A stretch of 64,000 nucleotides of DNA, from positions 132,583 through 196,582 of the forward strand of contig JACOZP010000008.1 in the NCBI GenBank assembly GCA_016181265.1, given 5' to 3'. Below, piece by piece: positions 3,255 to 61,200 of the stretch. The DNA is from Candidatus Woesearchaeota archaeon (GTDB lineage Archaea; Nanobdellota; Nanobdellia; Woesearchaeales; GW2011-AR9). Both the position numbers and the translations under genes were made by a program. Each line of letters opens with the position of its first letter. Position 1 is the first letter of the stretch. The notes beneath the pieces were generated by a model, which saw nothing but the letters and a program-made list of their open reading frames with translations, was not told the DNA's origin and did no database searches.

Positions 3255-3430
3255 TTTTTAGAGTTAGCGGAAGCGATTTTATCGACGATAAATGCTCAAG
3301 AAAAATGAGAGGTTGATGGTTTATAAAGATTGCGGTGGAGAATTATCACTTGCCTTTTCTTTGGTAGAATTCAGAAATCATCACAGCGAAGGGAATATTA
3401 AAAAATAACGGGAGAGAATGGATCCAAAAT

Positions 3431-4087: not shown

Positions 4088-4649
4088 GTAAGTAATAGAT
4101 TCCTTCTTTGAGATCTACTCTCTTCTCGTCGATCAATTGATCCAAGAAGTCTTCCAATTGATCGATGTTGACACCAGTTAGACGACTAAGTTGCGCTGCA
4201 GTGAAGTTCTGCGAGCCCAGAAGGACAAGAAGATAATTCTTAAGCAGGTCCTGAGTATTTTTCTGGAGATGTTCGTTCTGTAAACGCAGCTGTTTGGCAA
4301 CCATGTCCACTTGATGAAGACGAGCTTGGAGATCATTAAGCAGTGAGGAGATGTTCTGGCTGGATAATTGCATTTCACCGGGTTCTAAGATCTCGATTAA
4401 TGAGGGCATATAATCAAAGCAGAAACTGATAATGTCCGTTATGGAAGCTGTTTTTATTTCCATCTCAGCAAAGATCATCCATATTTCTTGCTTTTCCTGT
4501 TTCTGAATCTCGGCAATCTCCTCTGCAAGGACAGTATATTTAGTATCTTTTCTGAGTGTTTGGATATATTCTCTTAATGATTTCTCGACATGCTCTCGAG
4601 GTCGTCCAGCTACTTCAAGGACAGTGCGAAACGTAATGCCTTTTTCCAT
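4065..4649 (-). CDS. Hypothetical protein, possible kleisin ScpA-like partner of ScpB (C-terminal winged helix)
   Basis: 194 aa. Overlaps scpB by 23 nt (operon). C-terminal wHTH-like NFTAAQLSRLTGVNIDQLEDFLDQLIDEKRVDLKEGIYYL. The N-terminus is not clearly ScpA-like. Confidence 0.35.
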   Translation of the reverse strand: MEKGITFRTVLEVAGRPREHVEKSLREYIQTLRKDTKYTVLAEEIAEIQKQEKQEIWMIFAEMEIKTASITDIISFCFDYMPSLIEILEPGEMQLSSQNISSLLNDLQARLHQVDMVAKQLRLQNEHLQKNTQDLLKNYLLVLLGSQNFTAAQLSRLTGVNIDQLEDFLDQLIDEKRVDLKEGIYYLREEMAEH

Positions 4650-7227: not shown

Positions 7228-7455
7228 ATGGAACGCATGCCTGTTTTTGTTAAGATTGATGAATATAATGATGTTTTAGCTGTTGTTAAGTCGATCCGTA
7301 AGAAATTAGATGAAGCGAAAGAGACACTACTCAAAGTTTCAGATTTAAAGAATGAGGAAGACCACCAATTAGAGATGTGGCAAAATAGCCTTGCTGAATT
7401 AGAGAAGAAGATGGAGTTTATCGATCACTCGTTGAATGAACCGGAACAGTTCTAG
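7228..7455 (+). CDS. Hypothetical small protein (FVKIDEY...SIRK module), paralog of the C-terminus of the preceding gene
   Basis: 75 aa. PVFVKIDEYNDVLAVVKSIRKKL aligns with PLFVKIDVYQRILGEIDSIRKDV in the upstream ORF. Confidence 0.45.
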   Translation: MERMPVFVKIDEYNDVLAVVKSIRKKLDEAKETLLKVSDLKNEEDHQLEMWQNSLAELEKKMEFIDHSLNEPEQF

Positions 7456-7461
7456 GAGAAT

Positions 7462-7968
7462 ATGAAACATAAAAAAGCCGCTAAGAGCAAGACAGCAAAA
7501 GTTCATCGAGCGAGAGCTCTAGAACATAAAGAACATGAACGAGCACATGTTGAGAAAGAACCAGAATATATGATCCAGGTCGGGGATCCAAAGATGTTAC
7601 GGAAAGACCTGTTAGAATCTTTGCGGGAAGTAATCATCTTTATGCAGGGATATGAAACGTTCCGGAAAATACAGGAAGAGAAGGTCGCATTGTTCACTAT
7701 TCTTAAATCACAGATCAAAGAGATCAATACACTAGTAGATAGTAAGTTAAAGAAGTATCTGCCGAAAGGAAAATTACGCTCATTCTCGGAAAAGCAACTT
7801 CATCACCAAGAACAGGTAGAGGAATTGCCGGCTGAAGAAGCACAGCCTTTAGAGGTAGTCCCAGTAGCGACGCGACGGACGGAAACGCAAAGAGCACCGC
7901 CAAGCGAGTTGGATGAACTGGAGAAGCAGTTGAGAGATATTGAGAACCAGCTGCAGAACATTAGATAA
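7462..7968 (+). CDS. Hypothetical protein (basic N-terminus, coiled-coil C-terminus)
   Basis: 168 aa ORF, third gene of a tightly spaced +strand trio. Confidence 0.4.
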   Translation: MKHKKAAKSKTAKVHRARALEHKEHERAHVEKEPEYMIQVGDPKMLRKDLLESLREVIIFMQGYETFRKIQEEKVALFTILKSQIKEINTLVDSKLKKYLPKGKLRSFSEKQLHHQEQVEELPAEEAQPLEVVPVATRRTETQRAPPSELDELEKQLRDIENQLQNIR

Positions 7969-10985: not shown

Positions 10986-11349
10986 TGTTCTTCTTTAAAA
11001 TAGGAAATTATTTATAATTTCTCTCATTGAAATGAATTATGCCACTTTATGGAGAAGGGATCTTATGGTATATCCTGATTGTCGACTCTATTGGGTATAA
11101 TATTCTTTGTTGGACGAGGGGAAAATGGCATAAGAAGACGACTCATTGGCTCTCATCGTATATCCCGATGAATAAAGTGATGGGCTTATTGTATTTGTTT
11201 CTGCTGTTATGGATCGGAAGTGCCCTCGGACGGCTGGATATCTTGTCGTTCAAATAAAGAAGCAGGGCAGGATATAGGCGAATACCATAAAGAATATAAA
11301 ATAACCACCCTCTTTCTCCTAAAAACAATACTTTGAGGAGGTTTATGAG

Positions 11350-12060
11350 ATGGAACAAGAACAACAAGAACAAAAGCAAGCGAAAAGACCTGATTCTGAC
11401 CGCTTTTGGAAATTTGCAACAGTCGCACTGATCGTCGTACTGGCAGTATTTGCATTTCGGAGCAATGGAGGAAGTCCAGCAGCACCAACTGGAGGAGCTG
11501 TCGTAGATGGGCAAGTACCAACCGCAGCACCAGTTGATATGAAGAAGCTAGTTGATGATGATGATGTGCTGGGAAAAGCAAGCGCGCCGGTGACAATTGT
11601 AGAGTTTAGTGACTATGAGTGTCCTTTCTGTGTACGATTTCATACTGATACGTGGCCGCAACTAAAACAAAATTATATCGATACGGGAAAAGTAAAAGTT
11701 GTTTACCGTGACTTCCCATTGAGCTTCCACCAGAATGCACAAAAAGCAGCAGAAGCAGCTGAGTGTGCTGGATCGCAAGGAAAGTATTGGGAGATGCATA
11801 ACCTTCTCTTCACGAAAGGAGTGGAAGGAGGTATAGCAACGTTTAAACAGTACGCGCAAAGCTTAAGCTTGGATACAGCAAAATTTAACCAATGTCTTGA
11901 TTCCGGCGAGAAAGCAAGTGAAGTACAGAAAGATATGGCAGATGGCGCTGCGGCGGGAGTCCAGGGAACTCCAAGTTTCTTCGTCAATGGAGTACCAATC
12001 TCGGGCGCGCAACCATATTCGGTCTTCCAACAAGTGATTGATGCGGCTTTGGCAGAATAG
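11350..12060 (+). CDS. DsbA-like thioredoxin-fold thiol:disulfide oxidoreductase (exported or anchored)
   Basis: 236 aa. N-terminal TM/signal anchor, then IVEFSDYECPFCVRFH with a CPFC active site. DsbA-family C-terminus (GTPSFFVNG). GGAGG SD-like sequence 9 nt upstream. Local GC about 50-55%, higher than flanking genes. Confidence 0.8.
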   Translation: MEQEQQEQKQAKRPDSDRFWKFATVALIVVLAVFAFRSNGGSPAAPTGGAVVDGQVPTAAPVDMKKLVDDDDVLGKASAPVTIVEFSDYECPFCVRFHTDTWPQLKQNYIDTGKVKVVYRDFPLSFHQNAQKAAEAAECAGSQGKYWEMHNLLFTKGVEGGIATFKQYAQSLSLDTAKFNQCLDSGEKASEVQKDMADGAAAGVQGTPSFFVNGVPISGAQPYSVFQQVIDAALAE

Positions 12061-12169
12061 AGATAGATATTTATTTTTTTATTTTTATTAGCTTTCTAGA
12101 ATACGTTTTATACAAAGTCAAGATAATAGAAAAACTAAAGAAGAGAAAAATAAGAATGTTTAAAACAAA

Positions 12170-12721
12170 TTATTTTAATCTAATCTTTATTCCAACAGCA
12201 TCCCCGAGTTGTTCTTTCTTCTCACGGATATGCCGTTTGACATGATGTTTTAGTGGGTGTAGGTACTGCGCATCAAAGGACCAGCGATCTGGCCCATTAC
12301 AGAAAATGGAGATGCAAATGATGAGCAGACCAAGATCACGGATAGCAATGTCATTATAACCCAAACCGATGATGACAAAAAGAAGATGAAGTGTCGCAAC
12401 AAATGAGGTAAGACGGGTGAGAAAGCCAGCAAGGAGAAAGAGCCCAACAGTAGTATCAAACAGACCGTTGAGAAAGATAATTGTTAATGGCTGAAGAGGG
12501 ATGAGTTTCGTAAATCCAGGAAGGTAGCCGAGGAAAGTTTGTCCATTAAAGATCTGGATCATCCCGAACCAGAAGAAAACCACGCCAATACCAATTCGAG
12601 TGATAAAAGGAGCATACTGTTGATAACGATCTAGATGGACCATGGTTTTGAAAAATAGAGTTTCAAGTTTATATTCTTTACGGTTAAAGTCAAAAGAATT
12701 ATAAGAAAATACTGTTTCCAA
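12170..12721 (-). CDS. DoxX-family membrane protein
   Basis: 183 aa, 4 TM. RIGIGVVFFWFGMIQIF and overall DoxX-like topology. Confidence 0.5.
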   Translation of the reverse strand: METVFSYNSFDFNRKEYKLETLFFKTMVHLDRYQQYAPFITRIGIGVVFFWFGMIQIFNGQTFLGYLPGFTKLIPLQPLTIIFLNGLFDTTVGLFLLAGFLTRLTSFVATLHLLFVIIGLGYNDIAIRDLGLLIICISIFCNGPDRWSFDAQYLHPLKHHVKRHIREKKEQLGDAVGIKIRLK

Positions 12722-12724
12722 AAA

Positions 12725-13258
12725 GTGATGAATAATTGGATATTTTCTTTGTTAAGAGCATTAAAAGAGGTATATTCCAGGAAGCAGTATTATATTTATT
12801 CTTTACTCTTTGCGCTCTTTATCTTTTCTCTTAATCCGCTGCTACGAAATTATAAGCTACTCAAAGCACAATTCTCTTGGTTGTTGGTATTGCAGTTAAT
12901 ACTAGCATCACCAGTTACCTCAGGAACAGTACCATTCGTATTGCTGACTATTCTTTCAATCTTATCAGGAATAGTCATGGCGTTTAGTGTTTATGTGATC
13001 CGACGACAGATTTCACAAGGAGTAAATCTCGGTCTGACGGGTGTAATTATAGGGATCGTAGCACCCGCTTGTCCTTCTTGTGCATTAGGCATCTTTGGGG
13101 TGCTTGGTCTGGGAGGGTTACTAACCATTCTTCCGTTTAAGGGATTAGAACTGGGATTTTTAGGTATATTCCTTCTGATCATTTCATTATTATATCTAAG
13201 CAAGAAGATTGAAGCAAAAGTTTGTGTTTTACCACTGAAGAAAGGAAGGAAGAGATGA
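12725..13258 (+). CDS. Membrane protein with intramembrane CPSC (CxxC) motif
   Basis: 177 aa, about 4-5 TM. GIVAPACPSCALGIFGVLGLGG lies in a predicted helix. No identifiable family. Confidence 0.4.
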   Translation: MMNNWIFSLLRALKEVYSRKQYYIYSLLFALFIFSLNPLLRNYKLLKAQFSWLLVLQLILASPVTSGTVPFVLLTILSILSGIVMAFSVYVIRRQISQGVNLGLTGVIIGIVAPACPSCALGIFGVLGLGGLLTILPFKGLELGFLGIFLLIISLLYLSKKIEAKVCVLPLKKGRKR

Positions 13259-13272
13259 AGAAAAGAGGAGAC

Positions 13273-13626
13273 TTACTGCATTAGGCAGCCTGTCTTTTGA
13301 GAAAGATCTTCTAAGCTTACTGTTCCTTCTAGACGCGTACCATTTTCTAATTCCCACGTAGGGTATCCTTTAATTTCTTTCTTTACACAGTACTCAGTCT
13401 GGGTACTGCCGTCGGGTAGAGAACATTCAACATAGTTAATGTATTGGAAACTACTGCCAAACATTTCTTTTTGATCTTTGCAATGAGAACACCAAAAAGC
13501 ACCATACATGGCTACACCTTTTTCAGTAAGGCAAGATGCGAAATAGTCATACTTTGTGCTGTTTGACGAACAACCGATAAGGAAAATGAGAGAAATGAGG
13601 ATGAAAAAGATTATGAGCGGTCTCAT
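13273..13626 (-). CDS. Thioredoxin-like lipoprotein (VKOR-associated-Trx-like domain; WCSHC active site)
   Basis: 117 aa. Signal peptide with lipobox-like LIGC. YGAFWCSHCKDQKEMFG...INYVEC...GYPTWELENG resembles the periplasmic Trx-like domain fused to bacterial VKOR homologs. Confidence 0.6.
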   Translation of the reverse strand: MRPLIIFFILISLIFLIGCSSNSTKYDYFASCLTEKGVAMYGAFWCSHCKDQKEMFGSSFQYINYVECSLPDGSTQTEYCVKKEIKGYPTWELENGTRLEGTVSLEDLSQKTGCLMQ

Positions 13627-13703: not shown

Positions 13704-14207
13704 CTACATAAAGCCGAGTCGTCTTCCGCGGGTTGAGTTCGCTTTCTTGATTCCTTCTATAGTCTCTTCAAGAGAATAGCACCATGGCTCGAGTACTACA
13801 CATACACGAGGGAGATCAAAGAGAACAGGTTCATAAAGATGAAGATAAGGAGGAGTATTGGTCGCTTCGGTGTGATAGAAGAAAGCGACGCCTTGTCCAT
13901 GTTGGGGAAGATGATTCCTCTCCTGAAGAAGAATGGTGCGATTATACTTTGTTTGGAGAGCCCTCATCTCCCAGGGTGATGCTTTTTTTATAGTAGAGAA
14001 TGAATGTTTACCGGGTTGGAGAGAGCCGTTAAGATAGTAGTCAAAAACGTTCCCGTGAATACCATCGATGATTATCTTGAATAGTTTTTCACCTTGCACC
14101 CCCGGCTGGAGATGAAATTCGAGACGGACACCATCTTCGCAGTAGAAGGGGGATTTCACCCGGTACAATAGGTCTCGAGGAGCGAGGGGTTCTTTTTCTT
14201 TGGTCAT
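13704..14207 (-). CDS. Hypothetical protein
   Basis: ORF 13704-14279. The start at MTKEKEP (14207) abuts the ribL stop. No recognisable motifs. Confidence 0.35.
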   Translation of the reverse strand: MTKEKEPLAPRDLLYRVKSPFYCEDGVRLEFHLQPGVQGEKLFKIIIDGIHGNVFDYYLNGSLQPGKHSFSTIKKASPWEMRALQTKYNRTILLQERNHLPQHGQGVAFFYHTEATNTPPYLHLYEPVLFDLPRVCVVLEPWCYSLEETIEGIKKANSTRGRRLGFM

Positions 14208-49071: not shown

Positions 49072-51966
49072 ATGAGAAAAAGAGGATTACTTATAGTACT
49101 AGTTATTGTTCTATTAATCTCTCTTACTATTAATATTTCTGCTGCGGATCCTTTAATGTCTATTGAGAAGAAATTAAACGATCAGAAAGTGCTGGCGTTA
49201 GGTAAAATTGTCAACGCAGCTTATTCCGCGGGTTGTGATGCAGGATCAGATGATGACTGTTGGTATGATGGGGATGGGGGGATGAAAGGTGGGGAAAATA
49301 TCGTTGTTGATAACAATCGGGTCGCTATTACTTTAGATGTTGTTACTCCTTCCACCATAATTACAGGTCATGGTGAGTATGAATGTGACAATGTGGGTGA
49401 TGATTTAAATGCATTAGGAAATAAAGGAAATTCTCAAGGTTGTTTTGTAGGCTTAATTGATAAAGATTCAGGGGATTATGACGATGGTGCAGTAGGATAC
49501 GCGGCGAAAGGCACAATCTTGGATCATCAATACAAATCCGTCGCTTTTGCAGGACGTTATACTGCTTGTGATGACGATGATGCAAATGATGCCAAGAAAG
49601 GCCTGGTTGAAGCTCGTTTTAAGACAGGTGGAGTCAACGGCCCAATGTATCTTTGTTCGGGGGATAGTCAATGGCATATCTGTAAAGATGATCGAGGAGA
49701 AGAAAATCCCCCGTATTACGGAACGTATAGTTATGGTGAAGGAAATAGCATCTATAATTGTAGCGCTAATGAACAAGATGTAGTGACTTGGATTAAGCTT
49801 CCAGGTGTCGATAATGATCATGATCTTTACACCGATTTAGCTGGCGATTGTCGTGACGATCCCACCAACGATCCGCAGTTTTGTAAAGTGATCACTACCG
49901 CTGATTGCAGCGGTGAAGTAGGAGCATTGAAATATGCTTCTTGTGCGGTCTGTATCAATCCTAGCCAACCAGAACGAGGAGGGGATGGCATCGATAACAG
50001 CTGTACTACTGGGAAGACTGGTGATAGTGTTCTTACTGTTGATGACAATATGGACTTGCCGTTGTATAAAGAAGTGTGTAATCAAGAATTTGAATTTAGT
50101 CCGGAGAGCAGCGAGCAGAACCGTTGTTGTGGTGATGACGGGATTAGAGATGTTGGCGCAGTGATCAATACACTCTCTGGTGAATACTTGTGTCTCAACG
50201 GTCAAGAGGGGGAAAAAGAATGGAAATGGATTTCTGCTGGTGTGAATAAGTTTACAATTTTTACAGTAAATAAAATTGCAGAAAGGTCCTATGATCTTGT
50301 CTCAAACGGAGAACGTTGGAAAGCGTGTTCTGCGAGTACGGAGGGGAAACTCGAAGCGTCTGCTTTTTTCCCGAATGATGCAGCGCGATTTTATTGCAGT
50401 TCTACTGATGATGAAGCAGTCTGGGCGGATTGTGCGAAAGTATCGGAGAATGGTATAAAGCAAAGAACTGTTGGTCAAGGTGTTTTCGATCTGATGAATT
50501 TTGTTAAAGATAGTTCGATCCATTTCAGCAGCCAAGGCGGATTTACTGCCTACGAGATGATCTATGGAAAGCGTTATCCTTCTTTTGCTGGTTATGATTA
50601 TCTCGATGTCTATTTTCAATTTACGGATGAAACGTTGGAAGAAGGAGTAGGACTCCGTCTGGATGCATGGTCTACTAAGGGGAAGATTGCAACAGAAAAT
50701 GTGATGGGATATGTCATCAATGGAGCTTCGCTAGTTGGTAAGAAAACATATCATGCACAGATTCCCATGCAAGGATGGAGGGATGTTACAATTATTTCTT
50801 TTGTCCCAGTTAAAACTACTTTAGAATTGAAGAATGTCCATCTTTCTAAAAAGGGAAATGATCCCGTCTGTGCGGGAAATCTCTGGCTGGATTCTCTTGA
50901 TGCAGAAGATCTTTCGGTTGAAGAAGGTCAGATGTGCACTGCTTTAGGGTTAGCGTGGCTAGGTGATAAAGTAGAAGATCCTTCACTGCGCTGTTGCGGT
51001 AATACGGCTGGTGAATATGGTGTCGGTGACGAGAAGGGGTGTTGGAATTCACAGAGTGTTGATATTGGTCAGAGGATGACAAATGTTCAATTTGAATTAA
51101 CGTACGGAAAGGGAGAGTGGACGTATGGGACGACTGCCCAAAGTATCTCTGCTGATGTTGTTATCTCTTCTCCAACGGAATCTAAAACTGTTCATTGTTC
51201 ACAAACTGTCGATAGTTCTCAACCAACAAAATTATGTGAAATTGAATTTAGCCTCTCACAATTTAGAGATGCTACTCTCATCAATGTAAATGGTAGCCGA
51301 GCTTATTTTGCTGATCCTCTTCAACCAGAAGCGTATGATGAATCGTCTACTTCTCTAAAATATGATGACCTTCTTTCTATTGGTAAAGAGAAGAGTATTT
51401 TTTATGTGATGGGTGTGGCGGATACTCTTACTCAGGCTTATTCTTTTAATCCTTCGGTTACTGAAACATTGGCTTATTCATGTGATTCTTCGCCTTGCCG
51501 GATCCATCTGAAAGGGGTTCCTCCTTATACGATCCACAATAATTTTCCACAAAAATATGATCTCTACTTCGTGACAGGTGTTGACGGGAAAGAGATTCGT
51601 ACTCTCATTGATAAAGAGAAAACCGTGTATGCTCCCGATGGTTGGTTAGAGGTTGATGCTGTTCCGTTACAGGTGCTTTTTGCGGGAACGGCATTTCTTG
51701 GTTGCGGCGACACTACTTCTTTTGGGGCTGTTTCGCTAGTGTCTGAGAAAGTATGTTTTGCACAGAAAGTGGATACCGATGGGTTCTATTGTGATCCTTT
51801 CGGCAATTGGAAGAACGATGAGCTTCCGATGACGAGCTATGATGCAGAGAATAACATCCAACTAGTCCCTGGAATAGTGCACCAACCAGGAGATCGTAAT
51901 CACACTTCCTCTATCGTCTTTGGTAGGAATCTTTTAGAGAATCCTATGTTAAGTTTAACAAAGTAA
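49072..51966 (+). CDS. Giant secreted cysteine-rich protein A (964 aa)
   Basis: Signal peptide MRKRGLLIVLVIVLLISLTINISAADP. MopE-like Asp/Cys motif (DNDHDLYTDLAGDCRDDPTNDPQFC). RCCGDDG and RCCGNTAGEYG motifs shared with protein C. Many Cys. Confidence 0.7.
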   Translation: MRKRGLLIVLVIVLLISLTINISAADPLMSIEKKLNDQKVLALGKIVNAAYSAGCDAGSDDDCWYDGDGGMKGGENIVVDNNRVAITLDVVTPSTIITGHGEYECDNVGDDLNALGNKGNSQGCFVGLIDKDSGDYDDGAVGYAAKGTILDHQYKSVAFAGRYTACDDDDANDAKKGLVEARFKTGGVNGPMYLCSGDSQWHICKDDRGEENPPYYGTYSYGEGNSIYNCSANEQDVVTWIKLPGVDNDHDLYTDLAGDCRDDPTNDPQFCKVITTADCSGEVGALKYASCAVCINPSQPERGGDGIDNSCTTGKTGDSVLTVDDNMDLPLYKEVCNQEFEFSPESSEQNRCCGDDGIRDVGAVINTLSGEYLCLNGQEGEKEWKWISAGVNKFTIFTVNKIAERSYDLVSNGERWKACSASTEGKLEASAFFPNDAARFYCSSTDDEAVWADCAKVSENGIKQRTVGQGVFDLMNFVKDSSIHFSSQGGFTAYEMIYGKRYPSFAGYDYLDVYFQFTDETLEEGVGLRLDAWSTKGKIATENVMGYVINGASLVGKKTYHAQIPMQGWRDVTIISFVPVKTTLELKNVHLSKKGNDPVCAGNLWLDSLDAEDLSVEEGQMCTALGLAWLGDKVEDPSLRCCGNTAGEYGVGDEKGCWNSQSVDIGQRMTNVQFELTYGKGEWTYGTTAQSISADVVISSPTESKTVHCSQTVDSSQPTKLCEIEFSLSQFRDATLINVNGSRAYFADPLQPEAYDESSTSLKYDDLLSIGKEKSIFYVMGVADTLTQAYSFNPSVTETLAYSCDSSPCRIHLKGVPPYTIHNNFPQKYDLYFVTGVDGKEIRTLIDKEKTVYAPDGWLEVDAVPLQVLFAGTAFLGCGDTTSFGAVSLVSEKVCFAQKVDTDGFYCDPFGNWKNDELPMTSYDAENNIQLVPGIVHQPGDRNHTSSIVFGRNLLENPMLSLTK

Positions 51967-52046
51967 ATTTGAGTAGAAAATATTTATAAATAATCCTCAA
52001 ATTGGGATACTATTCGGTTTTAGGCGTGTTCTTGGAGGACTATACA

Positions 52047-52433
52047 ATGATACGGAAAGTAATGGTAGGTGCGCTCTTGGGATATAATATTTTAGCCTGC
52101 GGACCAACAACTGAGAATAACTATTATGGTATTACACCCAGTGGCCGGGATGGTTCTTTTTCCTGCGCTGATGCGGGAGAGGTTGAACGTCTTTGTAAGT
52201 TAGACTTAACTGGAAGAGATGATAAATTTGCAGATAATTCCTGGACTGATTGTGTTGCGAAGGGATGTGAATATTACCACTTTAGTCAAGCATGTATTGA
52301 TTGTATGGTTGCCAGCGAATGTGTTGATCAACCTAAAGAATCAGGAATGCCTGAAACTCCTTGGGAATTATGCGCCGCGCAAGGCCAATGTCCTAAACAA
52401 CCTAAAGAATGGGCATTTGATGTTTGTTATTGA
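52047..52433 (+). CDS. Small secreted Cys-rich (lipo)protein, family A paralog
   Basis: Start at MIRKVMVGALLGYNILAC (lipobox-like LAC), GGAGGA 7 nt upstream. ENNYYGITPSGRDGSFSC...CIDCMVASEC aligns with 48647-48994. Confidence 0.55.
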   Translation: MIRKVMVGALLGYNILACGPTTENNYYGITPSGRDGSFSCADAGEVERLCKLDLTGRDDKFADNSWTDCVAKGCEYYHFSQACIDCMVASECVDQPKESGMPETPWELCAAQGQCPKQPKEWAFDVCY

Positions 52434-52590
52434 TAAATTCTTTTTATTTTACTTTTCTCTTTCTCTATCGCTACATTTATATAGTTTTTACTCTTAATTT
52501 CTGTTAGTACCATGAATTGGAAAAAAGAGGTTTTGATTAATGTACTTTCTCGTATTTCTACTTCAACGTTCTCAAAAAAGGTGATAAACA

Positions 52591-52950
52591 ATGAAAATAG
52601 AAGTTAGTATTACAAAAGGAAAGTTTTGGACTCTAACAGCGATGTTAGTCTTTGTTGTTAGTATTTTTGTATTTGCGGCTAAACCAACTCCTGTTGGCCA
52701 TAGTGTTGATGAGGTAGAAGGGCTGAGTGAGCTTCAGAAGAAAGTTAATGATCTTGCTGCAAAGAGTGAATGGCCCGAAGGTTCTTACTGTGTGTGGAAG
52801 AAAGGAGATTGTCCAACTGGGTTTAGTGAGGCAAGTTTACATATTGATGCTGAAGATGATGGGGATTGGAATACGGGTGGTCCTATCGGTGATAGTAAAG
52901 AAGGTGGGAAAGATAATGTTGACATTTATGCGTGTTGCAAAACTTCATGA
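52591..52950 (+). CDS. Small membrane-anchored/secreted Cys-containing protein
   Basis: 119 aa. N-terminal TM (FWTLTAMLVFVVSIFVFAA). CVWKKGDCP...YACC. 4 nt ATGA overlap with the next gene. Confidence 0.45.
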   Translation: MKIEVSITKGKFWTLTAMLVFVVSIFVFAAKPTPVGHSVDEVEGLSELQKKVNDLAAKSEWPEGSYCVWKKGDCPTGFSEASLHIDAEDDGDWNTGGPIGDSKEGGKDNVDIYACCKTS

Positions 52951-55304
52951 ACCAAAAACCAATACTCCTCTTTGTACTTTTTCTTTCTAGCATTTCGTTT
53001 GCTGCAGCATTAGAGTGTTCTGTCTCGCAGACTGCTTGTAATCAACCGGGAGAAGCAATTATTTTGTGCCTCTCTGATCAGGCAAACGCACATGCCGAAC
53101 TCCCCCAGAGCATTGGCGGTGTGCAAAGCTGCTCCAATTATCAGTGGAAATTATGTTGTAAAGATATGTTTGTAAGTAATGATTGTAGAGCCGATAATCA
53201 GATTGCTTGGCTCGCAGCTCCGACGAATTCTCACGCAGCGCAGAGCAGTGGTTCAACATATTCTATTCCTGTCTGTGTTAATGGTTTACGTGAAACAACA
53301 TGTTCGACCTCTTCTTTTTCTGGCTCAACGTGTGTTCTTTCATTTTCAAGCAAAACTAATGCACATATCGCAAGTTGTGATGAGTCAAGTTATAAGAATC
53401 GAGTTTATTGCGCGGTAAATTCAGATAATGACAAAGATGGTTATGCGGCGAATATCGATTGTGATGATGATAATAAAAATGTAAATCCTGCAGCGGAAGA
53501 GATCGGCGATGGTTTGGATAATGATTGTGATGGTCTGATCGATGGTGATGATTCTGACTTGCTTCTCCTCCCAAAAGGGTGGTATCAGGTTTCTACGGAA
53601 TTAGATAAAGATCAATTTGGTTCCTATACTGCTGAAGGGGTTGAAGTGAAGACTTTAGAAACAGGCCAGAATGTCTTTACACTCACCGATTCAGGAAGAA
53701 AAGGTCTTCTTTCTAAGAAGATAAAGATTGAGAAAGGGAAAGAGTATGTTGCGAGAGGAGTGTTGTCATGTGAAGGGACAATACAGCTCGTCTTTGATGA
53801 TACTGTTGCGGAGGAGGAAGAAAGCGGCTTTTTGGGGTTTCTGTTGGGAGTTGACCTGGTAAATTCAGCAACAGGAAAAGATTCTCTTTCTGTCGTTGCA
53901 AATTCTGGCGAAGCAGAATACGCAGCGTTGTTTGTCGATGTTAAAGGAGAGAATTGTGAAGTGCGTGATCTACAGATTGATCTGAAAGGAAAAATACAAC
54001 CTGTCGAGTACAATGATGCGGTCCAACCAAGATCTTTACCTATCGAGCCGACGACAACGTTTGCTGCTGCTGCCTGCTGTCCTCAAAATACCTGTTGGAA
54101 TGGTTTTTCTTGTGTTGAGAATATGCGCGACCAGACTTTCTTGTCAGAGATAATCACAGAAAAAACAGTATACCAATGCATTGACGGCAACTGGGTCTTC
54201 CGCGCGAAATTATATGATTGGAACAATGAGGAATTTGGTTCCTGTCCCAATGAAGGGCAGTGTTTCGTCTTGAGTTCGCAGAAAGATGCTTCGCCGGAGG
54301 CGAAGGCTAGTGATTTTTACTCGGGAAAATATCCTTTGTGTGTCAATAATGGGGAGTATATTTTTGATCACTATTGCCATGAGGGAAATTGGGTGACACG
54401 GACGCAGCTTGCTGCGGAGTACTTGCTCAAAGCCGCTCCAAGTACTGATTTCACACTTTACTGTACTAATCCTCGCGATGCGCTAGTGAGTTTGGAGAAC
54501 CAAGATCAATTTGTCTTAGGGGACCCGGTGGGTGTTGTGTCTGGACAAGCGGGTGGTCTGTTGGCGGTGGATAAGCCTCAACCAACACGTATCTGTTTCC
54601 CCGACCTGACGGAATCAGGAAAAATGCTTGTTGATGACGCTGATAATACTTGCATCAATAATGTTTGTCTTTTACAAGATACTGATGGAACTATTGCTTT
54701 TGCCACAACGTTGAACGAGGATGTTAATGATGTTACCGGTTCATTCGTGCAAGCGTTAGGGATTTCACCTGAGAACTTCGCTCAGTCTTGTAGCGGTGAA
54801 GGGGAGTATAAGACTTGCGTCATCAATGGTATAGACGGTGAGATTTATTATTCTCCAACATTAAACGCATTGATCTATAGTAAAGATGGTGTGTCGTTCG
54901 ATCCAGGCATGTTTGAGACGATCATCTCTTTCTTCACAAAATTATTTGGTGGAGCAGTTGATGAGACTACTCTCATCATTCCAGCAAACAAAGCGGTTCC
55001 TTTCATCTATCTCTCTAAAAGTGGAGATAAATCCGCTCAAGCATTTGTGGAAGATAATGGCAGAGATGCAGCGGGGAATCATAATCTTACTCTAGTCGCT
55101 AATTATTCTGGGTTCAAAACCCCAATCTGTCTCTTTGTGAATCATCTGGCGGCTCCCTCGTCTGCTGGTCAGGGGGTGTTAGGTGAATTAGCAGGGCAAA
55201 GTGGTTTTGTCTGTGTTGATAAGGATGAAATACAAGAAATTGTTGCGACAAAAGATGTTGGTTATCTTTGGCCGCAATTAACGGGCAGGTTGAGGGTCGA
55301 ATAG
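52947..55304 (+). CDS. Giant secreted cysteine-rich protein B (about 785 aa) with MopE-type putative metal-binding motif
   Basis: Signal peptide (ILLFVLFLSSISFAAALE). DKDGYAANIDCDDDNKNVNPAAEEIGDGLDNDCDGLIDGDD matches the DxDxDG...DCDD.N..VNP.A.E.CDG.DNDCDG consensus. Numerous Cys. Confidence 0.7.
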   Translation: MNQKPILLFVLFLSSISFAAALECSVSQTACNQPGEAIILCLSDQANAHAELPQSIGGVQSCSNYQWKLCCKDMFVSNDCRADNQIAWLAAPTNSHAAQSSGSTYSIPVCVNGLRETTCSTSSFSGSTCVLSFSSKTNAHIASCDESSYKNRVYCAVNSDNDKDGYAANIDCDDDNKNVNPAAEEIGDGLDNDCDGLIDGDDSDLLLLPKGWYQVSTELDKDQFGSYTAEGVEVKTLETGQNVFTLTDSGRKGLLSKKIKIEKGKEYVARGVLSCEGTIQLVFDDTVAEEEESGFLGFLLGVDLVNSATGKDSLSVVANSGEAEYAALFVDVKGENCEVRDLQIDLKGKIQPVEYNDAVQPRSLPIEPTTTFAAAACCPQNTCWNGFSCVENMRDQTFLSEIITEKTVYQCIDGNWVFRAKLYDWNNEEFGSCPNEGQCFVLSSQKDASPEAKASDFYSGKYPLCVNNGEYIFDHYCHEGNWVTRTQLAAEYLLKAAPSTDFTLYCTNPRDALVSLENQDQFVLGDPVGVVSGQAGGLLAVDKPQPTRICFPDLTESGKMLVDDADNTCINNVCLLQDTDGTIAFATTLNEDVNDVTGSFVQALGISPENFAQSCSGEGEYKTCVINGIDGEIYYSPTLNALIYSKDGVSFDPGMFETIISFFTKLFGGAVDETTLIIPANKAVPFIYLSKSGDKSAQAFVEDNGRDAAGNHNLTLVANYSGFKTPICLFVNHLAAPSSAGQGVLGELAGQSGFVCVDKDEIQEIVATKDVGYLWPQLTGRLRVE

Positions 55305-55305
55305 G

Positions 55306-55605
55306 ATGAAGATATTAAAACTGATCATTATCGTCCTGCTTGTTTTGTTTTTCTTCGGGGCTTTTTCTCAATGGAAATATTTTATCAAACCGATCTCCGA
55401 AGAGTGTGGCCAGTTTAATCTTAATCCTGATGTTTCTCATCAGAAGAGTTGTGATTGCAGCGGCTTCTCTTTTTCTGAGATTGCAAAAGGTTCAACTAAC
55501 AACTATTGTTTTGGCACCTGCAAGATGTGTGAATGTTCTAACTACTATCTGGAAAATCAAACCAGAAAGATTGTGGATTGTTCTCAGTTTGGTCAAGACG
55601 ATTAA
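55306..55605 (+). CDS. Small secreted Cys-rich protein
   Basis: 99 aa. Signal peptide MKILKLIIIVLLVLFFFGAFS. CDCSGFSF...CFGTCKMCECSNYY. Preferred over the overlapping 5' extension of the 55340 ORF. Confidence 0.5.
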   Translation: MKILKLIIIVLLVLFFFGAFSQWKYFIKPISEECGQFNLNPDVSHQKSCDCSGFSFSEIAKGSTNNYCFGTCKMCECSNYYLENQTRKIVDCSQFGQDD

Positions 55606-55651
55606 TCTCCTAACAAACTTTTATAAGGATAAACTCTTTATTCTAAAAGAT

Positions 55652-58144
55652 ATGAACAAAAAGAGGGATGCTTTTCCTATTTTGCATGCTAAAAAAGGTC
55701 AGATTACTATCTTCATCATCCTCGGCTTAGTGATTCTTACTGTTTTTCTCTTTTTGATCTTCATCGTAAACACCAGCCAGCGCGCGAACCTAGAAGCAGA
55801 AAAAGCAGAAGCATTCGACAGTATTTATTCTAAAGAAGGATTATATTTGTATCTGGATACGTGTTTGAAAGACTCGTTGACTGAAGCGGTTGCCTTGATT
55901 CAAAAACAGGGAAGACTTTGGCGAGATATCAATCCTGGTGGCTTTGTTCCGTTTGAAGAGGGTAAAACAGGAGTAACAGTCAATGGGGTTCCCATTGCGT
56001 ACGGGTTAATCTATAATCCTTTTGAACTTTCACCAGAGGCGTACCCTTGTGCTTCCGAAGAAGGAAAACCAACATTTTGTTCATATCACTATCCTGATTC
56101 TACGGTCCGTTTTGGTGAATTAGTGTTGTCGTTGTCAACTGTTGAAGATGATCTTCGTCGCTACCTCAACCAGAAAGTTGTTGATTGTGCAGAGAAACTA
56201 GCTGTTGAAGAGATAGCACCCGATGCAGTTGTAGAGATCTCCAATCCTCAGTTTACTGTTTCGCTGCAGAGCAATGGTATCGCTGTTGATGCCACTATCC
56301 CTTTTTCAATGGTGATTCGGGGAATCCATTATTTTACAACTTCCTCTCTCAAGTTCTTTTATGACACTCCGCTGCGCGAGGTTGTGGAGACTGCAGCTTA
56401 CTTTCCTCTTCAAGCCGATCGGGATCACATCGATTTTTCCTATGATGAAAATACTTTGATTGCGCAAGATTATGTTGTTGGTTCTAAAGAGGAACTGAAG
56501 GGTTCTCTCGGCCAAAGTATGTGTACTTTCAGTGAGGGTAGTGATTCTTCTTATTTCATGTGTACAAAGAAGTTAGTAGTCGGATATTCTTCTTTAGGAT
56601 TAAAAATGAACTTTCAAAATTTAGATAATGGAGATACGCATTATACCTTCATTTCTCCAACAGTACACTATACATTTGCTCGGCAAAATCGTCCACCGGC
56701 TTTAGATTATGTTGCGCGTTATGCTTGTCCGAGAGGAGAATATGATTATCTTGCAATTGCCGGAGATCCTGCGTTAGGCACGATTGATATCACAGTAACT
56801 GCACGAGACCCGGACGAACAATTACCTACGGTGAGTGTTATTGATATTTCCGAAACTCCTCTATCGGCGGACAGCGATCCTCTTACTGAGCGTTTTGTAG
56901 CTTCTAGCCTCAATCCAGGACAATATTTGTTGAAAGCGGCGGCGAAAGACCCTGCGGGATTGGAAGATACGCAGGAGGTACGCGTAGTAGTAGATAATCC
57001 CATCTCTACTTCCATTTCTGTCCATCATATGTATCCTGACCTGATGACTGCAACTTCAGAAGAAATTGTTCTTGTTTCCCCAGAAGATCCCATCACAGTT
57101 GAGATGAACCTTCCTCAGAAATCATTAACCGAGGATCTTGGAGAATTTCGTTTTTCATTCTTGACGGATCAACTAGAAACATTATTTGACTTGATCCCTG
57201 ACCAAGGTTCTCCATTTGCTTTCAACAGCTATTCTTTTGTTTTTCCTTATGGTTTTGAGGGGAAAGATTTGATTAGAGAGATAACAGACACTTCACAATT
57301 TAAATACGCTCCTTTCACCAGCAATGTTAAGCAAGGCACATTTACTTTAAATTATAATATCAATTATTGTGGTTATCATAAACAATCCAGTGAAAGTTCG
57401 GTCCCTGTTATTGTAACTCCCTGTTTACCACATCAAAATTCTGATCACCCCTTTCCTTATCCTTATCAGGATTATGTGGATAAAGATCATGATGGTATTG
57501 CAGATAGGGACACTGATGGGGAACTGGTCCTAGAAAAATTAGAAGATCCGTTCGATGCTAGTCACGCTTGTTGTCTTGGCGACCCCACTGTGCCGGCAGC
57601 TTGGAAAATCGCTTCTTTAGAAGACAATGTTGGCTGTTTTAGAGATATGGTTGATGAGGAGGAGTCACTAGGTTGCTTTGGCGATGTTGATGCTAAAGGG
57701 AGGGGATATCTTTTAGAAAAAAGAATCACTAGAACTACTTTTTGTTCAGGATCAAGGGGAAATGTTTGTGATGGTGAGGAAAAGTTCGAAGCCGAACCTC
57801 AACAAAAATGTGGCATTAAAAGCCAAACAGAATGTTCCCTCGTCGCCCAAGAATGTCAAGGGCTTGCTCCTTATACAAAAGGTGACGGCTTCTGGTGTTC
57901 TGGAGATGTAGGATGTGGAGATACAAAGAGTAATGCTTGTACTTCTGAAATTGTCACAAACGTGAAAGGATTAAGTTTTGATTACGTCCAATCACAACAC
58001 GAGCAGTATAGTTGCGGCTGTACTTCTAAAGAAAAAGATCGAACTTGTCTCAGATTAAGTGATGAGGTTATCGGTACCTGTCGAAGAGGGACTATTCCTG
58101 GCACTTCCATAATTAATCCTCTTTCTTCTTATGCGTGTAGGTAA
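55652..58144 (+). CDS. Giant Cys-rich surface protein C (about 830 aa) with type-IV-pilin-like (class III) signal peptide
   Basis: N-terminus MNKKRDAFPILHAKKG|QITIFIILGLVILTVFLFLIFIV: basic region, Gly at -1, Gln at +1, about 24-residue hydrophobic stretch, no AxA site. Ig/cadherin-like middle. C-terminal Cys-rich region with HACCLGDP (compare CCGDDG in protein A). Start placed at the in-frame ATG 55652 after the overlapping small gene. Confidence 0.65.
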   Translation: MNKKRDAFPILHAKKGQITIFIILGLVILTVFLFLIFIVNTSQRANLEAEKAEAFDSIYSKEGLYLYLDTCLKDSLTEAVALIQKQGRLWRDINPGGFVPFEEGKTGVTVNGVPIAYGLIYNPFELSPEAYPCASEEGKPTFCSYHYPDSTVRFGELVLSLSTVEDDLRRYLNQKVVDCAEKLAVEEIAPDAVVEISNPQFTVSLQSNGIAVDATIPFSMVIRGIHYFTTSSLKFFYDTPLREVVETAAYFPLQADRDHIDFSYDENTLIAQDYVVGSKEELKGSLGQSMCTFSEGSDSSYFMCTKKLVVGYSSLGLKMNFQNLDNGDTHYTFISPTVHYTFARQNRPPALDYVARYACPRGEYDYLAIAGDPALGTIDITVTARDPDEQLPTVSVIDISETPLSADSDPLTERFVASSLNPGQYLLKAAAKDPAGLEDTQEVRVVVDNPISTSISVHHMYPDLMTATSEEIVLVSPEDPITVEMNLPQKSLTEDLGEFRFSFLTDQLETLFDLIPDQGSPFAFNSYSFVFPYGFEGKDLIREITDTSQFKYAPFTSNVKQGTFTLNYNINYCGYHKQSSESSVPVIVTPCLPHQNSDHPFPYPYQDYVDKDHDGIADRDTDGELVLEKLEDPFDASHACCLGDPTVPAAWKIASLEDNVGCFRDMVDEEESLGCFGDVDAKGRGYLLEKRITRTTFCSGSRGNVCDGEEKFEAEPQQKCGIKSQTECSLVAQECQGLAPYTKGDGFWCSGDVGCGDTKSNACTSEIVTNVKGLSFDYVQSQHEQYSCGCTSKEKDRTCLRLSDEVIGTCRRGTIPGTSIINPLSSYACR

Positions 58145-58239
58145 GATATATCAAAATTTGATCGCTTATTTTAAACATTTTCTAGACGAGAACGTTCACC
58201 AAACATTTATAAACGTTAAAGCATTTATGAAATTGAATC

Positions 58240-61200
58240 ATGAGAACCCCAAAAAGAGGTTTAGCGTTAGCTTCTGCTTTATCGTTCCTAGTGATATTTC
58301 TGAGTGTTTTCATACCTGCTGTTTCTGCGCAAGAAACCAATCCAACACAAGCAAAAGGGTGTTATTTTTATTCGCAAGGAAGTCTTGATGTTTCTTGTAA
58401 AACCGGCGGGGTCACTGAAGAAGTAGCGCAAGAGGACTGCGCGGCACATAGCGGTTGTGTTCTTCCTAATTGGTTTAAAGCAGGGTCGACCTGTGCGGAT
58501 ATTCCCGAATGTAAAGTTGTCGCTTGTGATGCGGCTAAATATGCTTGTCAGGAAGTTCCTTTAGGCACGTGTGTCCAAGCTGGTGGGAAAGAGATTACTG
58601 CTGAGAACAAAGCGGCAGAGTGTACAAAAGGCTGTTGTGTTGTCCCCCTGCCTGGTGGTCCCTTCTGCGCTCCTGAATTAGTCTTTAAATCGACATGCGC
58701 AGAGATTGCAGCATCGAAACAAGGAACAGCAAGTTATAAGTTTTATAATCCGGACTCGATGACATTGGCTCTTTGTCAACAGCAATATTGCAAAGCCGCA
58801 GTTGCGGAAGGGAGCCTGATAGGAATTGTAAAAGATCCTACCGGACAGGCCATCGCAGGCGCGACGATCTCAATCTTAGGCACTGTTTCTTCTACTCAAA
58901 CTAGTGCTACGGGAAGTTATTCTCTTCTTCAACTTGTGCCCGCTACCTACTCAGTAAAAGTCTCAAAAGCAGGTTATATGGAGGTAATCAAAAGCGTATC
59001 TGTGTCTGCGGGAGATGCAACTACTTTTGATTTCCAATTACAACCAGCAGCAGGCGCATCATCTTTACGTGTCACTGTCCGTGATACTGTACAGAAACTG
59101 TTGCCGGGGATTACAGTTACGTGGAAAGGTCCTGTTCAAGGAACGACCAAGACAGATAGCCAAGGAACTGCTCTCGTTTCTAATATTCCCGCTGGTGAGT
59201 ATACTTTACTGGTGAGCGCGGTGGGATATGTTTCCCAGGAACAGAAGAGAGTTATCGGCGCAGGAGAGACCGTCGTTGATGTTACTTTACTAAATGCCGT
59301 CTTTCAAGGAGTGCAAGGAACAACATTTGTAAACGGTGAAAAGACATATGGTGTTTCGATCTATGTTGATGGTTTTTTCAAAGCTAAGTCTCAATATCCC
59401 GATGGGAAATATAGTGTCTCTCTGCCTGCCGATGGGAAAGAACACACTGTTTCTGCGACGTACCAGAGCTTTGTCTCTTCGATCGAAACAGTAGCGGTTG
59501 CAAAAGAACAAACAATACAGAAAGATCTCTATCTGGTTTCGTTAAAAGGGGAGTGTGCTGTGGATGGTCCTTCTCCTCAGAAGAATGTTCAAGTGTTCAC
59601 TGCTTCTTCGGTATTAGGAGAAAAAAAGGTCCGTCTCGTCTGGGAAAAACCGTGTCCTGAAGTAGCAAGTTATACGTTACAAAAATCAAGAGGAGAAACA
59701 CTTCTAGCAACAAATACCATTTCTGGATTGGAGACCATCTACGTTGATGATAAAGAGTTGATGTGGAAAGAAACATATTCTTACACTCTTGTCGCTCACT
59801 TTGATTCGGGCTTATCATCAGAGAATGCCGTGACCGCAACAATCACTTTAGGTGATGAGGAATGTGAAGGCAGATTTGTTGATGCAACTAGTACTTGGTC
59901 TTCATTCTGTCTTGTAAATGAAAGACAGACGGTTTACACTTGTACAAATCAGAATATACTCACACCTGCACAGACATGTTCTTCTTTAGGAACGACGTGG
60001 TATTGTGCTCAGACAACGGGCACAACGGCAAGCTGTAAAGATGCGGGAATCTGTTCTGTCAATACCGCTCCTTTTGGTTTATATGCAGTTGAGGACGTAT
60101 GCTATGGACAGGACGACGAAAAATTCTGTTATTATGATTACACAAAAAATACTATTGCAAACCAATGTGCCAGCTGTGCAACTGTGACAAGCTGTTTCGA
60201 TTACCGGAGCAGGGGTGCATGCGAGAAGAATAATTGTGTCAGTTCTCAATGCGCGTGGGTGGATGTTGCATCCAACCCTCCACTTGTTGATTATAGTTAT
60301 CTGTTCTCATCTGACATCTATAGTCCTTTAGTGACCTCGACTGAAACGGGTGCTGGTTATTGTGTTGAGAAGGAATATGACAGTGACGAGAAGTGTTCTC
60401 TCTGTAGCTCTAGTTCGAGCTTATTTGAGAATTACTTTTGTACTCCTAATGTGTGTTCAAGTCTCGGTCGCTGTTTTGCTAATCCTGAACAGACAAGCTG
60501 CGAGCAGTGTAAAGAGAGCCCAGCACCGGATGCGACCTGTTACCGCTACACTTCAGAAACGGAATGTGTTGGAAAAGGAGGAATAACAAAAGATGAATTT
60601 GGGCGTCTTTCGTTTTCTGGCGATCGCTGTTCCTGGGGTCGTTGTTCTTGGGATGGGGCAAGCTGTATTAAAGATGGTAATGCTGATAAAAAGGATGATT
60701 GTGCTCTCGTGAAAGGCAGCTCAGTCGCTTGTGCTGTGGATAACACTCCACCCACAACAACTATGTCCGGCGCTTTGGTAACGACACAATCCCCGCTCGT
60801 CACTTTCACTGCTGACGATTCTTCTGCAAAAGCAGGTCAGACGAATCCTCTTAAAACTTTATCCTATTGTCTAAGTTCCATCGGCGGACCAAATGTGTGT
60901 ACTGCCGATCAATTTGTTTCAGTAGAGTTTAAGGGATTGACTCCTACGGAGAGCATTCCATTTAATATCTCTCAATTTCCTACGTTGGGTGGAGCAAAGC
61001 CAGAGGGAAATATCTTCACTATCTATTTCTATTCGGAAGATGTTTTTTCCAATCGTGAGCAAATCCAGGAAGGAGTATTATATATTGATACTGTTTCTCC
61101 TCAATTTACAGTTGTTGAAGAAGTTGCAACTACCGGGACGGTCTCTCAGCTGAATGTTCATCTTGAAGAGGTCAATGAACCAATTAGTTGTACTTTTTCG

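Follow-up and report, generated by a model that had tools for sequence, protein, structure and literature searches.

A 64,000-nucleotide stretch of a Candidatus Woesearchaeota contig (the whole stretch is called the window here) encodes an extracytoplasmic thiol-redox module, the conserved core of which is a pair of genes. The first of the pair encodes a DsbA-class protein (gene 1; 11350..12060, + strand, 236 amino acids), and the second an unannotated membrane protein with four transmembrane helices (TMs) and a CxxC...C arrangement of cysteines (gene 3; 12728..13258, + strand, 176 amino acids), referred to below by its CPSC motif. Two genes on the - strand complete the module: one for a DoxX-family four-helix membrane protein (gene 2; 12170..12643, 157 amino acids) and one for a lipoprotein carrying a VKOR-type thioredoxin (Trx)-like domain (gene 4; 13273..13626, 117 amino acids). 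An earlier note on this DNA had described these four adjacent genes as a putative extracytoplasmic disulfide-bond module. All four open reading frames (ORFs) are present where it placed them, and its general reading is upheld; the DsbA-like and Trx-like CxxC motifs both lie behind export signals. Genes 1, 2 and 4 are ordinary members of known families, whereas gene 3 represents a new family within a known kind of system. Gene 3 is probably the dedicated membrane partner of the DsbA-like protein. As an explanation of the whole we favour, tentatively, a role for gene 3 as a relay that serves the DsbA-like protein across the membrane, preferably as its reductant.

The partnership of genes 1 and 3 is supported by strong evidence, namely conserved adjacency in DPANN archaea, candidate phyla radiation (CPR) bacteria and a haloarchaeon. 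Neighbours of CPSC genes were counted in 38 species-representative loci from GTDB genomes, within ±7 kb and within 1.5 kb. A DsbA-like gene is found at 26 of the 38 loci at the wider distance and at 26 within 1.5 kb, in 21 cases directly upstream on the same strand. Next come cupredoxins (21/38 within ±7 kb, 10 within 1.5 kb) and VKOR-type Trx proteins (13/38 and 11), followed by DoxX (9/38 and 4), DUF3105 (8/38 and 5), VKOR (4/38 and 2) and DsbB (1/38 and 0). The reverse order, with the CPSC gene preceding the DsbA gene at gaps of 3-45 nucleotides or with overlaps, is dominant in Pacearchaeota-type loci and in about 20 metagenome loci. In the haloarchaeon Halolamina litorea the CPSC and DsbA genes overlap by 1 nucleotide, and in Saccharibacteria the CPSC gene follows immediately after the DsbA gene. 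Because the adjacency survives these changes of gene order across archaea and bacteria, genes 1 and 3 likely form a functional pair. In three divergent proteins (35-43% identical) a CPSC domain is followed by a TM and then a DsbA domain; these are apparent fusions, seen at the protein level only, and no single-ORF CPSC-DsbA fusion was found among 54 metagenome loci, many of which have the two genes side by side. The neighbour families in the supplement of Méheust et al. yielded nothing, and the literature on DUF3105 gave no helpful result.

Gene 1 encodes a DsbA-class oxidoreductase of the TsdA/BdbD kind, predicted to be membrane-anchored and extracytoplasmic. It matches Pfam Thioredoxin_4 (2e-36, 126 bits) and DSBA (3e-19, 69.9 bits), both over the cut-off. 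Its closest solved relative is Corynebacterium diphtheriae TsdA (4PWO/7UNN, E = 2e-24), with Bacillus subtilis BdbD (3EU3) at 2e-19 and ScsC-type copper-resistance proteins as weak PDB matches (~1e-7). With TsdA and BdbD, gene 1 shares a membrane tether, a CPFC motif, a Thr-cisPro loop and the DsbA fold, whereas the alignment is confined to the catalytic region of about 165 residues (69-234). Its CPFC active site (residues 91-94, codons at 11620..11631, + strand) aligns with that of TsdA, and GTPSF at 206-210 aligns with the Thr-cisPro loop of TsdA. The protein has four cysteines, the CPFC pair together with C139 and C182, and CPFC is without the His of the oxidising CPHC motif. The export signal on which the earlier note depended is there, as a K/R-rich N-terminal segment flanking a TM anchor (about residues 20-37), read from the sequence. 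The membrane partner of BdbD is the DsbB homologue BdbC. TsdA, which has both the tether and CPFC, shows strong reductase activity in vitro and a reported isomerase activity (PMC9974433). No membrane partner of TsdA is named in the sources consulted, whereas gene 1 has the CPSC protein as a conserved neighbour.

The N-terminal anchor of gene 1 follows a pattern, (K/R)-K-x-T/S-L-W-K and then a TM, that is common to DsbA-like, cupredoxin and Cys-rich proteins beside CPSC genes. Examples are found at window positions 11350-11460 and in loci L006 (6523-6849), L008 (6599-7021) and L040 (1042-1806). The pattern is usable for searches, and these proteins could have in it a common signal for sorting or interaction.

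Gene 3 itself is 100% identical in product to the NCBI entry 'hypothetical protein HYT55_03125' of Candidatus Woesearchaeota. A GTG at 12725 is also a possible start, giving 177 amino acids; in the 176-residue form CPSC occupies residues 115-118. A word-indexed search returned 79 homologues, all unannotated, and an exhaustive profile search extended the family to 1,836 cluster representatives at E <= 1e-3 (931 at E <= 1e-10). The members of named origin belong to Woesearchaeota, Pacearchaeota, Nanoarchaeota, CPR bacteria and, in one case, a haloarchaeon. CxxC followed by [L]P[F]xGxE is carried by 213 of 221 CPSC sequences, and 209 of these 213 have a further Cys just past the last helix. In the alignments, C115, P136, G139 and E141 are invariant family-wide, and C118, C166, P113, G121 and G127 are nearly so; there is no conserved His or Met alongside the cysteines, and there are no loop cysteines. 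The family can be defined by a length of about 170-190 amino acids, four TMs, P-x-C-x-x-C in TM3, an L-P-F-x-G-x-E loop, a Cys 4-8 residues after TM4 and a DsbA-like neighbour, all of which gene 3 has.

The earlier note had suggested comparing this protein with VKOR, DsbB and CcdA-type families, and homology searches gave no match to any of them. Gene 3 had no match in Pfam or NCBIfam, and 37 family members searched against Pfam at E <= 10 returned scattered chance matches only. Searches of PDB by sequence and by family profile returned nothing. Two AlphaFold2 (AF2) models, with a predicted local distance difference test score (pLDDT) of 78.5 and then, with 147 sequences, of 85.4 (predicted template modelling score 0.78), gave no fold match in PDB with Foldseek, where the best E-values were 0.8 and 3. 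For VKOR (PF07884) this means no match in the 37 members at E <= 10, nor in PDB by sequence or fold. For DsbB (PF02600), which has two outer-side Cys pairs, there was likewise no match, and gene 3 has one CxxC and one tail Cys instead. For CcdA/DsbD (PF02683) there was no Pfam or PDB match, and the model has four TM helices against six. A UniRef label on the haloarchaeal member, 'sulphur transport domain', was set aside, as it has no Pfam support.

A second small membrane family, with a KKC...ACPVC pattern that combines a cytoplasmic-side Cys with an intramembrane CxxC, cross-matches CPSC queries in phmmer and is probably a distant paralogue of CPSC. It recurs near the module in L003 (6865-7287) and L006 (8065-8475), and also in L014, L029, L030 and L035.

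The topology of gene 3, which rests on positive-inside counts and on natural fusions, is distinctive: the CxxC lies mid-membrane, with the LPFxGxE loop outside the cell and the tail Cys inside it. Lys and Arg residues average 11.5 per protein on the side formed by the N-terminus, loop 2 and the C-tail, and 2.8 on the side of loops 1 and 3 (n = 195). In L003, L028 and L030, DNA-continuous CPSC ORFs run on past the tail into a K-rich linker and a further TM, and end in an exported domain that is a cupredoxin or rich in Cys. These extensions place the C-tail on the cytoplasmic side, and the two lines of evidence together put the LPFKGLE loop outside and Cys166 inside. Within gene 3, the CPSC motif with Cys115 and Cys118 (13070..13081, + strand) lies at a kink of TM3, which the AF2 model places at Cys115, and is central in a 40-residue Gly/Pro-rich stretch (residues 99-138) that is almost without charge. 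The LPFKGLE loop between TM3 and TM4 (13130..13150, + strand), with its invariant P, G and E, is a candidate docking site on the outer face, and the third signature cysteine, Cys166 (13223..13225, + strand), lies in a K/R-rich tail. As to the question raised earlier, of which side the CxxC motifs face, genes 1 and 4 are exported, while the motif of gene 3 is buried and its third Cys cytoplasmic.

This layout recalls that of the CcdA, DsbD-beta and ScsB proteins. Common to both are buried mid-membrane cysteines next to a conserved Pro, discontinuous helices, an adjoining or fused extracytoplasmic partner with a thioredoxin fold, and involvement of the cytoplasmic side. CcdA and DsbD have six TMs with one Cys each in TM1 and TM4 (in PCxxP motifs), whereas gene 3 has four TMs, a CxxC in a single helix and a tail Cys; their partners are of the TlpA/ResA or DsbC class, whereas that of gene 3 is of the DsbA class, and there is no similarity of sequence or fold. 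The likeness is one of design only, a mid-membrane P-x-C-P-x-C, and both thiol exchange by gene 3 and the direction of electron flow are what we infer. In our proposal, gene 3 would serve the DsbA-like protein, and perhaps the Trx-like lipoprotein as well, as a dedicated thiol-disulfide relay across the membrane, in which exchange would run along the outer docking loop, the intramembrane CxxC and the cytoplasmic-tail Cys. Such a relay would act as a minimal counterpart of CcdA/DsbD or ScsB and bring reducing equivalents from the cytoplasm to the outside. The CPFC enzyme could thereby correct wrong disulfides by reduction or isomerisation, or hold the Cys ligands of neighbouring cupredoxins in the reduced state, while oxidation would be done by the CxHC Trx-lipoprotein together with VKOR.

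A reductant relay has, in our estimate, about an even chance of being correct, which places it ahead of an oxidant. The pointers towards it, which would also suit a metal relay, are the cytoplasmic position of the third near-invariant Cys, the buried CxxC, the partner's CPFC without His, the in vitro activities of TsdA and the oxidising-type CxHC of gene 4. Copper-ligand cysteines of cupredoxins must stay reduced, and cupredoxins are frequent neighbours of CPSC genes. In addition, the CPSC gene lies near VKOR in L004, L010, L011, L013, L015 and L047, and near DsbB in L035, L049 and L056. Since these genes share loci, CPSC is unlikely to be redundant with VKOR or DsbB. The idea of a simple substitute for VKOR, DsbB or CcdA fails likewise, as CPSC lies near each of them in different genomes.

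The principal competing explanation, which was also offered in the earlier note, is that CPSC is a new class of DsbA re-oxidant, a functional analogue of DsbB, VKOR or MauE that takes electrons from the DsbA-like and Trx-like proteins and hands them to an acceptor in the membrane or outside the cell. We regard it as rather unlikely; the acceptor could be scavenged quinone, perhaps with DoxX, or the neighbouring cupredoxins. What stood of this suggestion is that CPSC is the strongest candidate for a membrane partner of DsbA, given the 26 of 38 loci and the apparent fusions; what did not is the layout, which is unlike that of DsbB or VKOR. Like DsbB, VKOR and MauE, gene 3 is a small helical membrane protein with essential-looking cysteines, a DsbA-like neighbour and a VKOR-type Trx neighbour. 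VKOR is a four-helix bundle with a loop Cys pair and a CxxC at the outer end of TM4, and in all disulfide generators known to us the cysteines lie on the outer side. The cysteines of DsbB, VKOR and MauE face outward, whereas gene 3 has neither an outer-loop Cys pair nor a CXC loop, its CxxC is buried and its third Cys is cytoplasmic. A cytoplasmic third Cys would be unnecessary for an oxidant and would carry a risk of short-circuit. Moreover, gene 3 has no detectable similarity, in Pfam or in fold, to these proteins, and it is co-located with VKOR or DsbB. On the other side, the tight adjacency of a DsbA-class partner suits a re-oxidant, which would also fit organisms thought to lack quinone synthesis and a heavy demand from Cys-rich secreted proteins. 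A cupredoxin lies within 7 kb in 21 of the 38 loci and is fused in several proteins, and in the window and L009 the VKOR block of sister genomes is missing although DsbA, the Trx-lipoprotein and CPSC are present. About 20% of bacterial species have none of DsbB, VKOR and MauE (bioRxiv 10.64898/2026.03.05.709764), and among the neighbours of MdbA-like genes in CPR bacteria VKOR ranks no higher than third in frequency (PMC6744442).

The place of VKOR in this module is best seen from gene 4. Its product has a signal peptide and a lipobox (LIGC), and, after the lipobox Cys, a CSHC motif and four more cysteines. Residues 30-113 match the Trx-like domain of Synechococcus VKOR (3KP8/3KP9, E = 8e-20, phmmer against PDB), which bears out the earlier suggestion that this lipoprotein resembles the domain fused to VKOR. 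The CSHC active site (residues 46-49, codons at 13480..13491, - strand) aligns with CPHC of 3KP8_A, and the two proteins share WCxHC, the YPTW cis-Pro region and a Cys pair between them. In Synechococcus the domain is fused to VKOR, whereas in gene 4 it is a separate lipoprotein, VKOR being a separate gene in L004 and L047 and missing from the window. The order in L004 and L047, the closest syntenic genomes, is PCNA, a 72-amino-acid gene, DsbA, DoxX (-), CPSC (+), Trx (-), VKOR, a second DoxX-like gene, a 211-amino-acid gene and CobW, followed by a 168-amino-acid gene, a cytidylyltransferase and an Asn synthase-like gene. Because VKOR (Pfam 4.4e-26) adjoins the gene 4 orthologue in these two sister genomes, gene 4 is to be read as the split-off Trx partner of VKOR. 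The window and L009 have the same backbone without the four-gene block of VKOR, DoxX paralogue, 211-amino-acid gene and CobW. DsbA, DoxX, CPSC and Trx are constant features of this clade, and VKOR is a variable one.

Next to gene 4, at 13704-14207 (-), the window encodes a 167-amino-acid protein with no Pfam match that is 41% identical to the 168-amino-acid gene after the VKOR block in L004, and it serves as a boundary marker of the missing block.

No VKOR was found in the 64-kb window when the Woesearchaeal VKOR of L004 was searched against all six-frame ORFs with tblastn and phmmer --max (best E = 0.11). DsbB and CcdA sequences from related loci were searched against the fetched loci only. 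Among the plausible genes of the window, gene 3 is the only one with a CxxC in hydrophobic surroundings. The earlier remark that no DsbB or VKOR is visible therefore holds for VKOR in the window, but the lineage is not VKOR-less, as L004 and L047 carry VKOR beside the Trx-lipoprotein.

This opens another explanation, namely ordinary VKOR-dependent oxidative folding with VKOR elsewhere in the genome and CPSC without a redox role, acting for instance as a scaffold for the shared single-pass anchors of DsbA, cupredoxin and Cys-rich proteins. It would agree with VKOR standing next to the Trx-lipoprotein in sister genomes, with a search that covered 64 kb of a contig of about 202 kb, and with the N-terminal KK-x-T-L-W-K and TM shared by proteins beside CPSC. 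We nevertheless hold it to be very unlikely, as three near-invariant cysteines across more than 1,800 clusters point to cysteine chemistry. A search with the L004 VKOR adds weak evidence in the same direction, in that none of the 120 homologues listed bears the HYT55 tag; a homologue with 86% identity belongs to another genome (L047).

Gene 2 was called mechanically as an ORF at 12170-12721 (-), running to a TTG at 12721; alignment of orthologues supports the ATG at 12643 as its true start. It passes the Pfam DoxX model (PF07681) marginally (E 2.5e-5, 25.2 bits against a cut-off of 23.6), and falls under the cut-offs for DoxD (2e-4) and MauE (0.038). The gene is syntenic in L004, L009 and L047. 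MauE, a relative of DoxX, can replace DsbB by means of a CXC(FG) motif in the loop between TM3 and TM4 (bioRxiv 10.64898/2026.03.05.709764). In the alignment, gene 2 has no CXC, and neither of its two cysteines is conserved among the orthologues of L004, L009 and L047. With no CXC and no conserved Cys, gene 2 is not a MauE-type enzyme, and a MauE-like role as thiol oxidase for DoxX on its own was rejected. DoxX would instead be an accessory protein without catalytic cysteines. A triad of cupredoxin, DoxX and VKOR genes occurs in 4 of the 9 DoxX-bearing loci. In L011 (4298-5561) it consists of overlapping ORFs just upstream of the DsbA-CPSC pair, and it is also present in L010, L013 and L015. 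The triad suggests a small VKOR-DoxX-cupredoxin electron path in these archaea.

One may also suppose that CPSC handles a metal, Cu(I) or another thiophilic one, as a thiol-based relay or transporter on the plan of MerC or MerT, which together with the DsbA-like CxxC protein would deliver copper to cupredoxins or confer copper tolerance as in the Scs system. Such a role would agree with a transmembrane CxxC followed by a cytoplasmic Cys, with adjacent or fused cupredoxins, some of CuA type, and with the weak PDB matches of gene 1 to ScsC-type proteins. It would also agree with further genes present in some loci, for DUF411/CopG, a P-type ATPase, a CopC-like domain and the Cu-binding protein MopE. 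MerC and MerT likewise have a transmembrane Cys pair and then a cytoplasmic Cys, and GCAAC is common to them and the Pacearchaeal subfamily (APGCAACG), but the likeness is without statistical support, and the loci have no mer context and no MerP- or MerA-like genes. Homology of gene 3 to MerC was rejected: hhalign gave a probability of 0.2% over 11 columns against Tn21 MerC, and there is no Pfam match to MerC (PF03203), to MerT or to heavy-metal families. The Tn21 MerC sequence compared is 100% identical to the annotated merC. Furthermore, no His or Met is conserved with the cysteines, the most constant neighbour is DsbA and not cupredoxin, and gene 1 is much nearer to TsdA and BdbD than to ScsC. 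We judge a metal relay to be improbable. The Salmonella ScsABCD system, which is likewise linked to copper, has similar components: a membrane redox protein (ScsB, a DsbD homologue), an anchored protein of Trx-like type and a DsbA-like one. However, Pfam and NCBIfam gave no sign of homology to the Scs membrane proteins, and the copper link is here one of neighbourhood only.

Beside the module in L001, at 7256-7708, lies a cupredoxin lipoprotein with a CuA-type motif, CxxxCGxxHxxM (Pfam COX2); no oxidase subunit I is visible nearby.

Several points weigh against the relay that we prefer, with its reducing direction. The confidence of the AF2 model is lowest around the CxxC (pLDDT about 68-75). 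The apparent DsbA fusions might be due to stop codons that were lost or misread. As a rule, enzymes of the DsbA class are oxidases that stand beside their re-oxidant, which a priori favours an oxidant. The window and L009 have no nearby VKOR yet keep DsbA and the Trx-lipoprotein, and an oxidant would still have to come from somewhere. Finally, L050 has a canonical TlpA-CcdA pair 3 kb from its CPSC-DsbA pair, and a reductant role would look partly redundant there.

Other genes recur around the pair. A string of five genes, DsbA, DUF3105, CPSC, cupredoxin and a shorter CPSC-like gene, is found in L075, L079, L088, L092 and L094 (in the last at 1598-4380). The DsbA gene is closely preceded by a gene of MarR type or with a winged-helix-like product in L003 (4541-5041), L006 (4509-4907), L007 (4642-5148), L008 (4364-4864) and L048 (3006-4431); Pfam MarR is matched in L007 and L048, while those of L003, L006 and L008 have no Pfam match and have N-terminal hydrophobic helices. 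Several extracytoplasmic redox proteins (Trx-like, DUF3105, ACPVC) begin with a cytoplasmic C2H2 or zinc-ribbon motif followed by a TM anchor, and CPR bacteria have a protein of 572 amino acids in which a Zn ribbon is joined to a membrane domain resembling CPSC, then to a TM and a large ectodomain that contains Cys and has no Pfam match. Proteins of these kinds are encoded in L006 (6864-7403), L007 (6512-6982), L035 (6388-6954), L039 (7424-9139) and L043 (3620-5284).

In the window, the genes around the module are archaeal, among them those for PCNA and a cytidylyltransferase of archaeal type. A gene for a small membrane protein of 72 amino acids, at 11039-11257 (+), separates the PCNA and DsbA genes; it has no family match, and L004 and L009 have it at the same place with 57-60% sequence identity. 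At 45818-47735 (-), a 311-amino-acid protein with 14 Cys (start MDCFHCSK...) is encoded directly upstream of a same-strand ORF of 329 amino acids with 8 Cys, which has the look of a ThiF/MoeB-type E1 enzyme, judged from the start of its sequence alone. These two Cys-containing proteins are outside the disulfide module.

Plausible substrates of the module are encoded further along the same stretch. The earlier note had counted at least eight Cys-rich secreted proteins at 48.6-64 kb. Cys-rich ORFs are indeed present there, five of them large and with signal peptides (49072..64000, + strand). By a crude ORF call, these five have 33, 11, 33, 27 and 78 Cys. Cysteine makes up 3-8.6% of their residues, and the last, of at least 1,920 amino acids and with the 78 Cys, runs past the end of the window.

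The CPSC family may be a missing redox partner of DsbA in organisms without DsbB or VKOR. The family is large, unannotated and tied to DsbA genes in three very different lineages, and it abounds in just those organisms that are rich in DsbA-like genes; CPR bacteria, for their part, show an enrichment of DsbA/MdbA-like proteins (PMC6744442). One may speculate, although we think it doubtful, that the CxxC...C family is a new class of quinone-independent membrane enzymes that recycle DsbA in the ultra-small DPANN and CPR cells and in haloarchaea. They would pass redox equivalents through the membrane by way of the intramembrane CxxC and the cytoplasmic Cys, possibly coupled to extracellular cupredoxins. 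If true, this would fill part of the gap left by species that make structural disulfides without DsbB, VKOR or MauE. With about 175 amino acids and three cysteines, CPSC proteins are small enough for direct testing. In either direction of electron flow, they would represent a new structural solution for transmembrane thiol-redox transfer, and they would help to explain the folding of the many Cys-rich surface proteins of DPANN and CPR cells.

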